A stretch of 64,000 nt of DNA. Source: Escherichia coli O157:H7 (lineage in GTDB: Bacteria; Pseudomonadota; Gammaproteobacteria; Enterobacterales; Enterobacteriaceae). Every line of letters starts with the position of its first letter. The first letter of the stretch is position 1. Shown piece by piece: positions 3,233 to 35,996 of the stretch. A model generated the notes under the pieces. The model was given only the letters and a program-made list of their open reading frames with translations, did not search any database and had not been told where the DNA came from. The stretch lies in NCBI RefSeq assembly GCF_013167455.1, contig NZ_CP038328.1; one strand, written 5' to 3'. The position numbers and the translations under genes were made by a program.

Positions 3233-4888
3233 ATGACTAATCTTCCCCACTGGTGGCAAAACGGCGTTATCTACCAGATTTATCCAAAGAGTTTTCAGGA
3301 CACCACGGGTAGCGGCACCGGCGATTTACGTGGCGTTATCCAACGCCTGGACTATCTGCATAAACTGGGCGTTGATGCCATCTGGCTAACCCCCTTTTAT
3401 GTCTCTCCGCAGGTCGATAACGGTTACGATGTAGCGAACTATACGGCGATTGATCCCACCTACGGCACGCTGGACGATTTTGACGAACTGGTGACGCAGG
3501 CAAAATCGCGCGGGATTCGTATCATTCTCGATATGGTGTTTAACCATACCTCTACCCAACATGCCTGGTTTCGCGAGGCGCTGAACAAAGAAAGCCCTTA
3601 CCGCCAGTTTTATATCTGGCGCGATGGCGAACCAGAAACGCCACCGAACAACTGGCGTTCAAAATTTGGCGGTAGTGCGTGGCGCTGGCATGCGGAAAGC
3701 GAACAGTACTATTTGCATCTCTTTGCACCAGAACAGGCGGATCTCAACTGGGAGAATCCAGCGGTACGCGCAGAGCTGAAAAAAGTCTGTGAGTTCTGGG
3801 CCGATCGTGGGGTCGACGGGTTGCGCCTGGATGTGGTGAATCTGATCTCCAAAGACCCGCGTTTCCCTGATGACCTGGATGGCGACGGGCGTCGCTTCTA
3901 CACCGACGGGCCACGAGCACACGAGTTTTTGCACGAGATGAACCGCGATGTGTTTACGCCACGCGGGTTAATGACCGTAGGTGAAATGTCCTCCACCAGC
4001 CTTGAGCATTGCCAGCGATACGCGGCACTGACAGGCAGTGAATTGTCGATGACCTTTAATTTTCATCACCTGAAGGTCGATTATCCCGGTGGTGAAAAAT
4101 GGACGCTGGCTAAACCTGACTTTGTGGCGTTGAAAACATTGTTCCGCCACTGGCAACAAGGAATGCACAACGTAGCATTGAATGCCTTGTTCTGGTGTAA
4201 CCACGATCAGCCGCGCATTGTTTCTCGCTTTGGTGATGAAGGTGAATACCGCGTGCCTGCGGCAAAAATGCTGGCGATGGTGCTGCATGGCATGCAGGGA
4301 ACGCCGTATATCTACCAGGGCGAAGAGATTGGCATGACCAACCCGCATTTCACGCGCATTACTGACTATCGCGACGTAGAGAGCCTCAATATGTTTGCCG
4401 AGCTGCGCAACGATGGGCGTGATGCCGACGAGTTATTGGCAATCCTCGCCAGTAAATCCCGTGACAACAGCCGCACGCCCATGCAATGGAGCAACGGCGA
4501 TAATGCCGGGTTTACGGCTGGCGAACCGTGGATTGGCCTGGGCGATAACTATCAACAAATCAACGTAGAAGCCGCGCTGGCCGATGAGTCCTCGGTGTTT
4601 TACACCTACCAAAAGTTAATCGCACTGCGTAAGCAGGAAGCCATCCTGACATGGGGCAATTACCAGGATCTGCTGCCAAACAGCCCTGTATTGTGGTGCT
4701 ATCGCCGTGAATGGAAGGGGCAAACCTTGCTGGTCATTGCCAACCTTAGCCGTGAGATCCAACCCTGGCAGCCAGGGCAAATGCGCGGCAACTGGCAGCT
4801 TGTGATGCATAACTACGAAGAAGCCTCACCACAACCCTGTGCCATGACTTTACGGCCTTTTGAGGCTGTCTGGTGGTTACAGAAGTAA
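3233..4888 (+). CDS. treC: trehalose-6-phosphate hydrolase, 551 aa (GH13)
   Basis: ORF-track 3086..4888 starts at an upstream TTG; the real start is the ATG giving MTNLPHWWQNGVIYQIYPKSF; alpha-amylase family motifs present. Confidence 0.95.
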   Translation: MTNLPHWWQNGVIYQIYPKSFQDTTGSGTGDLRGVIQRLDYLHKLGVDAIWLTPFYVSPQVDNGYDVANYTAIDPTYGTLDDFDELVTQAKSRGIRIILDMVFNHTSTQHAWFREALNKESPYRQFYIWRDGEPETPPNNWRSKFGGSAWRWHAESEQYYLHLFAPEQADLNWENPAVRAELKKVCEFWADRGVDGLRLDVVNLISKDPRFPDDLDGDGRRFYTDGPRAHEFLHEMNRDVFTPRGLMTVGEMSSTSLEHCQRYAALTGSELSMTFNFHHLKVDYPGGEKWTLAKPDFVALKTLFRHWQQGMHNVALNALFWCNHDQPRIVSRFGDEGEYRVPAAKMLAMVLHGMQGTPYIYQGEEIGMTNPHFTRITDYRDVESLNMFAELRNDGRDADELLAILASKSRDNSRTPMQWSNGDNAGFTAGEPWIGLGDNYQQINVEAALADESSVFYTYQKLIALRKQEAILTWGNYQDLLPNSPVLWCYRREWKGQTLLVIANLSREIQPWQPGQMRGNWQLVMHNYEEASPQPCAMTLRPFEAVWWLQK

Positions 4889-17081: not shown

Positions 17082-18038
17082 TCAATACCCCATATTTTTC
17101 TTCTTCTCTAACTCTTCTTTTGCGGTATCAGGCAGGTAAAGGGTGGATTTGGTTAACGTCAGCTTTTCAGGCATGGTGCCGTCTTTTTTGTATTTCTCCA
17201 GCGCATCGAAAGCGGGTCCCGCCATGTTCGGCGTCAGTTCAACACTGGCGTTCGCTTCGCCATCCATCATCGCTTTGTAGATGTCCGGTACACCGTCAAT
17301 GGAACCCGTGAGGATATCTTTGCCCGGTTTCAGGCCCGCTTCTTTAATTGCCTGAATTGCACCAATCACCATGTCGTCGTTATGGGCGTAAACCATGCAG
17401 ATGTTTTTGCCGTTGTTTTCCGCTTTGATAAAGCTCTCCATGACTTCTTTGCCTTTACTGCGGGTGAAGTCACCTGACTGCGAGCGGATGATTTTGATAT
17501 TTGGCGCATTCTTAATGGCTTCGGCAAAGCCTTTCTTACGGTCAATGGCGACGCTGGCCCCAACGGTGCCCTGCAGCTCCACCACGTTGCATGGTTTGCC
17601 ATTCACTTCTTTTACCAGCCAGTCACCGATCAACTTACCTTCGAGGATGTTGTCGGCAGTAACGGTGGTCATATAGAGAGATTTGTCTTTCACATCGATG
17701 GAACGGTCGAGCAAGAAGACCGGGATTTCGGCATCTTTCGCCTCTTTTAATACCGGTTCCCAACCTGTCGCGACCACCGGAGCGATAAAGATCGCATCCA
17801 CCCCTTGTGCAACGAAGGAACGTACCGCTTTAATCTGGTTTTCCTGCTTTTGCTGACCATCGGCAATTTTCAGCGTAATTCCGCGTTTTTCGGCCTCACT
17901 TTTCGCCACATTGGTTTCTGCGGCGCGCCAGCCGGATTCCGATCCGACCTGCGAAAATCCTACGGTTAATGGAGCGGCCAACGCCATAGACGACATGGCT
18001 GCCGAGACTGCAGAGACTACAAGTAAGCGTTTCCACAT
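17082..18038 (-). CDS. ytfQ: periplasmic sugar-binding protein (galactofuranose-binding), 318 aa
   Basis: Full ORF with signal peptide (MWKRLLVVSAVSAAMSSMALA); periplasmic binding protein fold. Confidence 0.95.
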   Translation of the reverse strand: MWKRLLVVSAVSAAMSSMALAAPLTVGFSQVGSESGWRAAETNVAKSEAEKRGITLKIADGQQKQENQIKAVRSFVAQGVDAIFIAPVVATGWEPVLKEAKDAEIPVFLLDRSIDVKDKSLYMTTVTADNILEGKLIGDWLVKEVNGKPCNVVELQGTVGASVAIDRKKGFAEAIKNAPNIKIIRSQSGDFTRSKGKEVMESFIKAENNGKNICMVYAHNDDMVIGAIQAIKEAGLKPGKDILTGSIDGVPDIYKAMMDGEANASVELTPNMAGPAFDALEKYKKDGTMPEKLTLTKSTLYLPDTAKEELEKKKNMGY

Positions 18039-18108
18039 AGGGTTGTCCTCGTCGGAGTAATTATTATTGGTGAAAAGATGTTCGCGAAAAAACTATAGAC
18101 AATTCGTT

Positions 18109-18129
18109 ATGTAACGGATTGCGTTACAT
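18109..18129. promoter_or_regulatory. inverted repeat ATGTAACG-N5-CGTTACAT upstream of ytfQ (candidate operator)
   Basis: 8-bp perfect arms ~70-90 bp upstream of ytfQ start in the ytfQ-ppa divergent intergenic region. Confidence 0.35.
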
Positions 18130-18347
18130 CACACTTCAAAAAAGTAAATAAAACGTTAATCACAAGTTTGTAATCGCTTTCATCTCACTATGAAAAATGC
18201 GGCTACGGTTATGGATTTTCCTGCTCTGCATACCGTCTTAAAACTGGCGAAAAAGGAAAATGAAGACGAAAACAAGCGAAGACATTCGGCGCGAGTTGGC
18301 TATAATACTCGGCACTTGTTTGCCACATATTTTTAAAGGAAACAGAC

Positions 18348-18878
18348 ATGAGCTTACTCAACGTCCCTGCGGGTAAAGATCTGCCGGAAGACATCTACGT
18401 TGTTATTGAGATCCCGGCTAACGCAGATCCGATCAAATACGAAATCGACAAAGAGAGCGGCGCACTGTTCGTTGACCGCTTCATGTCCACCGCGATGTTC
18501 TATCCGTGCAACTACGGTTACATCAACCACACCCTGTCTCTGGACGGTGACCCAGTTGACGTACTGGTCCCAACTCCGTACCCGCTGCAGCCGGGTTCTG
18601 TGATCCGTTGCCGTCCGGTTGGCGTTCTGAAAATGACCGACGAAGCCGGTGAAGATGCGAAACTGGTTGCGGTTCCGCACAGCAAGCTGAGCAAAGAATA
18701 CGATCACATTAAAGACGTTAACGATCTGCCTGAACTGCTGAAAGCGCAAATCGCTCACTTCTTCGAGCACTACAAAGACCTCGAAAAAGGCAAGTGGGTG
18801 AAAGTTGAAGGTTGGGAAAACGCAGAAGCCGCTAAAGCTGAAATCGTTGCCTCCTTCGAGCGCGCAAAGAATAAATAA
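18348..18878 (+). CDS. ppa: inorganic pyrophosphatase, 176 aa
   Basis: Full [38 protein letters not shown]...; TATAAT -10 element at ~18301. Confidence 0.97.
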
Positions 18879-19566: not shown

Positions 19567-19585
19567 AGTTATACAAAGTATAACT
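19567..19585. promoter_or_regulatory. palindrome AGTTATAC-AAA-GTATAACT immediately upstream of chpS RBS (candidate chpSB operator / -10)
   Basis: Perfect 8-bp arms with 3-bp spacer; contains TATACT -10-like hexamer on the reverse strand. Confidence 0.4.
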
Positions 19586-35973: not shown

Positions 35974-35996
35974 AAGATGCATTTAAAATACATCTT
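35974..35996. promoter_or_regulatory. NsrR operator upstream of ytfE (AAGATGCATTT-A-AAATACATCTT)
   Basis: Near-perfect 11-1-11 inverted repeat matching the NsrR binding consensus, ~30 bp upstream of ytfE start. Confidence 0.8.

Follow-up and report, generated by a model that had tools for sequence, protein, structure and literature searches.

The region between the divergent genes ytfQ and ppa of Escherichia coli O157:H7 contains a dyad, ATGTAAC-N7-GTTACAT, that lies in the predicted core promoter of ytfQ. We regard this dyad, with a probability of about one half, as a candidate operator for a dimeric repressor that is encoded elsewhere and competes with CRP and RNA polymerase at the ytfQ promoter. 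Several other explanations, namely a GalR/GalS site, promoter architecture, an activator site, an RNA hairpin and chance, rank lower.

The window analysed, a stretch of 64,000 nucleotides from contig NZ_CP038328.1, reads ATGTAACG-GATTG-CGTTACAT at positions 18109-18129. An earlier note on this DNA had described a perfect 8-bp inverted repeat here, about 70-90 bp before ytfQ, and both the sequence and the position match; the dyad is located 71-91 nt 5' of the ytfQ ATG (at 18038, minus strand). In the orientation of ytfQ, the arm ATGTAAC runs from 18129 to 18123 and is followed by a 7-nt spacer (18122 to 18116) and by the arm GTTACAT (18115 to 18109). The same element can be written as TGTAA-N9-TTACA, and in the window it is TGTAA-CGGATTGCG-TTACA with both arms perfect. 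The letters of the 8-bp unit with an N5 spacer are thus present as the note gave them, but the conserved unit has 7-bp arms and an N7 spacer. The eighth pair is G-C in 11 of 24 sequences, G-T in 7 and something else in 6, and E. coli K-12 has G-T there; because it varies, we take ATGTAAC-N7-GTTACAT as the true unit.

Features of the ytfQ control region, with positions in the window
Feature	Position	Strand	Basis and remarks
Dyad	18109..18129	.	Read directly; arms identical in 20/23 orthologous promoters, without covariation
ytfQ, first gene of ytfQRT-yjfF; periplasmic galactofuranose/arabinofuranose-binding protein	17082..18038	-	ORF list, RefSeq annotation
GalR/GalS operator O2, GTGGAAACGCTTACTT, over the ytfQ start codon	18021..18036	-	Published ChIP-chip site (PMC5110547, Tables 3 and 4); 18.8 bits; conserved
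-10 element TCTATAGTT, sigma-S-like; hexamer TATAGT 18097->18092, with -14T and -13C	18091..18099	-	Conservation
CRP-like site TGTGA-TGTAAC-GCAAT	18118..18133	-	Conserved half-sites; class II, centre at about -40.5 as deduced from the -10 box
GalR/GalS-type operator O1, ATGAAAGCGATTACAA	18168..18183	-	15.3 bits; 147 bp from O2
AraC-type half-sites, direct repeat 21 bp apart: AGCAGGAAAATCCATA 18225->18210, AGCCGCATTTTTCATA 18204->18189	18189..18225	-	Match to AGC-N7-TCCATA, conservation
ppa promoter-like site AAGACA-16-TATAAT	18279..18306	+	Promoter scan; about 150 bp from the dyad, outside the ytfQ control region

The intergenic region is 309 bp long. On its far side ppa (18348-18878, plus strand) is transcribed divergently from ytfQ, in agreement with the RefSeq annotation, which also places ytfR and ytfT on one side of ytfQ, and chpB, chpS, ytfP and tamB on the other. 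The earlier statement that no regulator gene adjoins the site is borne out by these neighbours (ppa, chpBS, ytfP and ytfRT). Upstream of ytfQ in other genera, likewise, no regulator gene was found, and the longer intergenic DNA present there is non-coding. Given an operator-like dyad with no adjoining regulator gene, a regulator encoded elsewhere is the natural reading.

Comparison of orthologous promoters, which the earlier note had named as the place where its proposal could fail, gives the clearest view of the dyad. The ytfQ loci were fetched from a collection of species-representative genomes and 23 Enterobacteriaceae loci were aligned. All 14 arm positions (ATGTAAC and GTTACAT) are identical in 20 of these 23 promoters, from Escherichia, Citrobacter, Enterobacter, Kluyvera, Pseudocitrobacter, Siccibacter, Superficieibacter, Phytobacter, Mangrovibacter and others. 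None of the 5 nt immediately downstream of the dyad is conserved, and within the spacer only the CA of a CRP half-site is. The dyad keeps a constant distance of 11 nt to the TATAGT hexamer downstream of it. It is absent from the ytfQ loci compared in more distant Enterobacterales, Aeromonas and Vibrio; Cedecea and the Erwiniaceae are among those without it. In Pluralibacter gergoviae both arms are replaced (by CCTCGC and GTTCATT), with TGTGA, GCATT, the exact spacing and the -10 box all kept; since the two arms were lost together, they are a single unit and distinct from the signals for CRP and the polymerase. Judged from this pattern of conservation, the site is real, stands above chance and is of the protein-binding type.

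The arms lie within what is predicted to be the core promoter of ytfQ. The sequence ATTGTCTATAGTT is nearly invariant across the aligned promoters, and with TATAGT taken as the -10 hexamer, transcription would start near 18085. Relative to this predicted start the dyad extends from about -44 to -24, with its centre at -34. A T at -14 and a C at -13, just before the hexamer, are features of sigma-S promoters. The CRP-like site shares bases with the dyad, in the upstream arm and in the spacer; its TGTGA, which abuts the dyad, is invariant in the 24 sequences, as is the CA of its right half, and in all it matches the CRP consensus at 5/5 positions in the left half and at 2/5 in the weak right half. 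No -35 hexamer could be recognised in the ytfQ promoter in a promoter scan. This predicted promoter, of CRP and sigma-S type, agrees with the reported cAMP and RpoS dependence of the operon. Expression of ytfQ and ytfR is reduced in a cya mutant (PMC4512719). In O157:H7 strain EDL933, ytfQ is 879-fold RpoS-dependent and ytfQRT-yjfF is among the top 100 RpoS-dependent genes, with ratios of 879, 76, 36 and 34 (PMC2907692); that table names no regulator for the operon. The supplements of one start-site paper contain no entry for ytfQ. In Enterobacteriaceae bacterium RIT691 (locus L014, around 3840-3950) an insertion of about 112 bp separates the -10 box from the ytfQ ribosome-binding site and would give ytfQ a much longer leader.

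The mechanism that we propose starts from a DNA-binding protein that acts as a dimer, has its gene elsewhere in the genome and would bind ATGTAAC-N7-GTTACAT, where the spacing of the half-sites would suit a winged-helix dimer of the Rrf2 type. The dyad covers the -35 region and the downstream half of the predicted class II CRP site, and any protein occupying it would keep cAMP-CRP and RNA polymerase out, so that this is most likely a repressor site, acting as a further input beside control by GalR/GalS, AraC, CRP and RpoS. We infer repression by occlusion, as we do the transcription start and the family of the binding protein. The arrangement would resemble that of class II CRP sites that are under a specific repressor, in that a second dyad extends into the predicted CRP site (centre at about -40.5); given the overlap, CRP and a second protein would not be able to bind together.

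It could be argued that no separate factor is involved, the conserved bases simply serving recognition by CRP and by RNA polymerase containing sigma-S, and the symmetry being incidental. The dyad does overlap the CRP-like site and the -35/spacer region, close to a conserved sigma-S-like -10 box, and ytfQ is cAMP-dependent and very strongly RpoS-dependent. However, CRP does not read its N6 spacer base by base, and the upstream arm fills just that spacer, so that CRP alone would not explain why this arm is invariant. The downstream arm falls at -30 to -24, a stretch that the polymerase does not specify. Neither CRP nor the polymerase would be expected to fix the arm bases, which argues for a separate reader of the arms, and against a purely architectural origin stand also the simultaneous loss of both arms in Pluralibacter, where the CRP half-sites, spacing and -10 box are intact, and the fact that each conserved block is, over 7 bp, the exact reverse complement of the other. 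We therefore consider this explanation unlikely, and return to an operator for a protein other than those that make up the basal promoter.

Known regulators of ytfQ have to be weighed as possible readers. The proposal of an operator made in the earlier note stands in its main part, on the invariance of the arms, their fixed position in the core promoter and their joint loss, but its premise that the operon has no known regulator does not hold; the literature reports control of ytfQ by GalR/GalS, AraC, cAMP-CRP and RpoS. GalR occupies the ppa/ytfQ region in vivo, with a ChIP-chip signal of 22 (PMC5110547), control by GalR/GalS and AraC has been described (PMC10191376), and that by AraC also in a further study (PMC7843439). 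Conserved GalR-type, AraC-type and CRP-type sites are present in the same intergenic region. In the ytfQ orientation the elements follow one another in the order AraC sites, O1, a stretch of variable length, an A/T-rich tract, TGTGA, the dyad, TCTATAGTT, the ribosome-binding site and O2. O2 was scored with a matrix built from the other published operators; the 18 published operators score 14.4-22.1 bits, a range into which O1 also falls. All 23 promoters have a GalR-type operator at the O1 position, and its distance from the start of the AraC-like repeat is 50 bp in each; O1 does not appear in the tables of the genome-wide GalR paper (PMC5110547). The pair formed by O1 and O2 recalls the OE/OI layout of the gal operon. 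The AraC/O1 module has this rigid 50-bp internal spacing and lies, depending on genus, 40-155 bp from the dyad (about 40, 45, 56 or 143-155), the variation arising from a non-coding stretch of about 100 bp that is present in many genera (loci L001-L052). Such a variable distance suggests either a separate upstream AraC-dependent promoter or action by looping.

In view of these sites, the dyad might be a non-canonical GalR/GalS site that aids an O1-O2 repression loop or directly represses the CRP-dependent promoter. It sits between the two conserved GalR-type operators, its arms are the same as the outer 7 nt of genuine GalR/GalS operators (ATGTAAC, as in mglB ATGTAACCGCTTTCAA; operator list in PMC5110547), and the strong GalR signal at ppa/ytfQ would not distinguish it, since sites 60-90 bp apart are inseparable by ChIP-chip. 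The half-site (A/G)TGTAAC is indeed common to the dyad and to the operators of galE (OE and OI), mglB, galP and galS, and the same operon carries O1 and O2. These operators (GTGKAANCGNTTNCAC), however, are 16 bp long with abutting half-sites and a central CG, whereas the dyad is 5 bp longer, no LacI-family operator has its half-sites so far from each other (the excess is 5 bp), and a central CG is neither present nor conserved. The best 15-mer overlapping the dyad reaches 7.2 bits, compared with 14.4-22.1 bits for the published operators; about 1 in 1,000 random 15-mers from the window reaches 5 bits on this matrix. A LacI-type dimer, as known from the LacI and PurR complexes, cannot span both arms. 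A GalR/GalS site at the dyad thus seems improbable.

For a repressor of another family, the form of the dyad offers a lead. It matches the consensus site of no known ytfQ regulator, and on the sequence it has the same form as published Rrf2 operators: it is a perfect instance of TGTAA-N9-TTACA, the 19-bp core of operators of the HypR/SifR type. HypR of Staphylococcus aureus binds TAATTGTAACTA-N3-CAGTTACAATTA (PMC6067689), and the SifR operator of Streptococcus pneumoniae is TGTAA-N9-TTACA, termed the canonical Rrf2 operator by its authors (PMC9218516); both proteins are repressors (PMC6067689, PMC9218516). Of the thiol-based Rrf2 systems, which also include B. anthracis SaiR and the B. subtilis YwnA subfamily, HypR and SifR have a core identical to that of the ytfQ dyad, and the HypR operator in addition shares its TGTAAC-N7-GTTACA (PMC6067689). 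These operators overlap core promoter elements, and so would the ytfQ dyad if transcription begins at the predicted start. It differs from them in having no adjoining Rrf2 gene, the cognate repressors being usually adjacent and autoregulated, in preceding a sugar ABC transporter and not redox or quinone detoxification genes, and in being interleaved with a predicted CRP site.

Matches to ATGTAAC-N7-GTTACAT in metagenomes point in the same direction for other organisms. A scan returned at least 120 loci, and among the matches listed 6 are ytfQ promoters and 114 are other loci. An Rrf2 ORF lies within 1.5 kb in 11 of these 114 exact matches (Pfam PF02082, E = 1e-30 to 1e-32); as a genome has only a few Rrf2 genes, far fewer than one such neighbour would be expected by chance. 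Again among the matches listed, the motif coincides with the start codon or the promoter of an Rrf2 gene or Rrf2-containing operon in about 9 of the 11 Rrf2-linked loci; it overlaps the Rrf2 start codon in 5 loci, lies ahead of an Rrf2 gene as well as an MFS transporter gene in 1, and in others stands before an azoreductase-like or OYE-type oxidoreductase gene that is linked to an Rrf2 gene. Many of the non-ytfQ matches are in contigs of 60-70% G+C, where an A/T-rich pattern of this kind should be rare. The metagenome Rrf2 proteins have a TNPVVVRR reading helix and a single conserved Cys, and their profile finds B. subtilis YwnA as its best match (PDB 1xd7, E = 1.7e-37), with E. coli IscR at 1e-4. 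This co-occurrence tells of the role of the motif elsewhere and not of its reader in E. coli.

A few of the metagenome loci deserve separate mention. Four high-G+C loci (L089, L156, L159 and L195), and also L158, have in common an extended intergenic 27-bp palindrome, AACATGTAACGTATTACGTTACATGTT, to which no regulator gene nearby could be assigned. In L095 (154-174) and L138 (5220-5240) the dyad is found 12-18 nt before genes for RpoD-like sigma factors, and L138 has an Rrf2 gene directly upstream. In L120 (11757-11815) two identical copies of ATGTAACATACGGTGTTACAT, 38 bp apart from start to start, occur within a longer direct repeat, the nearest ORF found being 133 nt away.

In the Enterobacteriaceae themselves a matching reader is less easily named. 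In none of the genera examined is there an Rrf2 gene near ytfQ. To our knowledge, the Rrf2 family of E. coli K-12 consists only of the Fe-S proteins IscR and NsrR, and the published motifs of these two do not fit the dyad in register. NsrR would be an Rrf2-family reader already present in E. coli, with an ATG(C/T)A core in each half-site, but its ATGCA-N7-TGCAT compares with ATGTA-N11-TACAT in the dyad, so that the NsrR cores are 4 bp closer together. With the centres aligned on the 11-1-11 motif AAGATGCATTT-N-AAATGCATCTT, by reading, only 2/11 positions match per half, and the cores of the dyad are displaced 2 bp outward on each side relative to the ATGyA cores of NsrR. The NsrR motif was taken from PMC5320621; the main text of the CFT073 NsrR ChIP-seq paper does not mention ytfQ. 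A reference for the NsrR register exists within the window itself, where GATGCATTTAAAATACATC at 35976-35994 is a perfect match to the 11-1-11 core, and we take it to be the NsrR site of the ytfE promoter.

No member of the thiol-based Rrf2 class that uses the motif is known from E. coli and its close relatives. YwnA-type Rrf2 genes are present on Klebsiella plasmids. On one of these, from K. pneumoniae (NZ_LR890179.1, locus L211), the sequence TTTCATGTAATAGTATAAGATACATGAAA at about 1913-1941, of the form ATGTAAT-N7-GATACAT, lies upstream of such a gene; this is a TGTAA-N9-ATACA dyad of the same class, and the Rrf2 gene adjoins an RND efflux gene. The repeat upstream of the plasmid Rrf2 gene in another Klebsiella locus (L210) is different and adds no support. 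The DNA of two Klebsiella plasmid YwnA-type genes found no match in 5,426 complete E. coli genomes by blastn, a search that could miss a distant chromosomal homologue. The top matches in a search with a YwnA-type profile were alpha- and beta-proteobacterial only, which is uninformative on the Enterobacteriaceae. Against an Rrf2 reader, moreover, a regulator that senses redox state or quinones has no obvious reason to control a sugar transporter. We rate an Rrf2-family reader of the ytfQ dyad in E. coli as rather unlikely, though not remote. Similarly unlikely is the view that a perfect Rrf2-type operator has been retained in the ytfQ promoter, by E. coli and by its close relatives, for an unrecognised second binding mode of IscR or NsrR, or for an undescribed regulator.

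If the dyad is bound by a dedicated protein, this might be an activator or a factor of sigma selectivity and not a repressor, an idea that gains from the lack of a recognisable -35 hexamer and the extreme RpoS dependence of ytfQ, and from the existence of activators that occupy the -35 region. With its centre at -34, however, a dimer would fill -44 to -24 and collide both with CRP at -40.5 and with sigma region 4, and the Rrf2 proteins that use TGTAA-N9-TTACA are repressors. An activating role is in our judgement improbable, and a repressor operator is the better account.

Other identities were compared with the dyad as well. The CRP consensus TGTGA-N6-TCACA has its half-sites 6 bp apart, and the TGTAA arms of the dyad are 9 bp apart. 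The AraC site consists of two 17-bp half-sites (AGC-N7-TCCATA) in a 21-bp direct repeat; the dyad is inverted and contains no such half-site. The TyrR box, TGTAAA-N6-TTTACA, has a fixed spacing, and TGTAAC-N7-GTTACA is 1 bp too long for it. By reading, the dyad fits none of the OmpR, RstA, CytR, PurR, KdgR, LexA, FNR and MerR-type sites. NrdR overexpression lowers YtfQ protein, yet no NrdR box fits the dyad, again by reading. A literature search for the dyad sequence and for TGTAAC/GTTACA gave nothing relevant. There is no second copy with up to 3 mismatches in the 64-kb window, and the dyad is not found at the promoters of araBAD/araC, araFGH, araE, galETKM, galP, galR, galS-mglBAC and alsR/rpiB in about 230 kb of K-12 sequence. 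With no second dyad in the roughly 300 kb of E. coli sequence examined, no regulon can be proposed.

A symmetrical element could also act as RNA, here as a hairpin in the leader of a transcript from an upstream AraC-dependent promoter. The sequence folds (-9.2 kcal/mol, z-score -2.2), and the AraC/GalR-O1 module upstream could drive such a transcript. On the other side, none of the 8 pairs shows a change on both sides and the innermost is mismatched in 6 of 24 sequences, so that, compensatory changes being absent, an RNA helix is not what the dyad represents; what is conserved in the arms is the sequence, there is no U-tract or terminator-like site, and no Rfam family scores above threshold, the only match being OrzO-P with 22 bits against a threshold of 60. 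We regard a hairpin as very unlikely. The match to the OrzO-P antitoxin RNA (window 18105-18169, plus strand, E = 0.31) was treated as chance.

Taken as a bare palindrome, the element is statistically ordinary and without significance; with spacers of 0-12 nt, at least one perfect 8-bp inverted repeat occurs in 8.2% of Markov simulations of the intergenic region. In the whole window there are 39 such repeats, a count that includes overlapping registers of longer palindromes, compared with about 15 in simulations. A chance palindrome without function, which some 8% of simulated intergenic regions would contain, is nevertheless scarcely credible, being contradicted by arms that stay invariant over about ten genera as the neighbouring bases vary.

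The operon ytfQRT-yjfF, among the most RpoS-dependent operons of O157:H7, already integrates galactose, arabinose and cAMP signals, and a fifth, unassigned and perfectly conserved site in its core promoter would mean that regulation is not yet fully described even in so well-studied a model organism. The dyad, short and sharply defined, is a ready bait for the missing regulator, and Pluralibacter provides a natural design for a loss-of-site mutant. Should IscR or NsrR prove to be the binder, Fe-S, NO or redox status would be linked to the uptake of furanose sugars and the known recognition modes of the Rrf2 family would be extended; should it be another protein, a function would be assigned to an uncharacterised E. 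coli transcription factor.

A further perfect palindrome, AGTTATAC-N3-GTATAACT, is located nearby at 19567-19585 in the window, 14-32 nt upstream of the start of chpS, and is probably the autoregulatory operator of the chpS-chpB toxin-antitoxin system.
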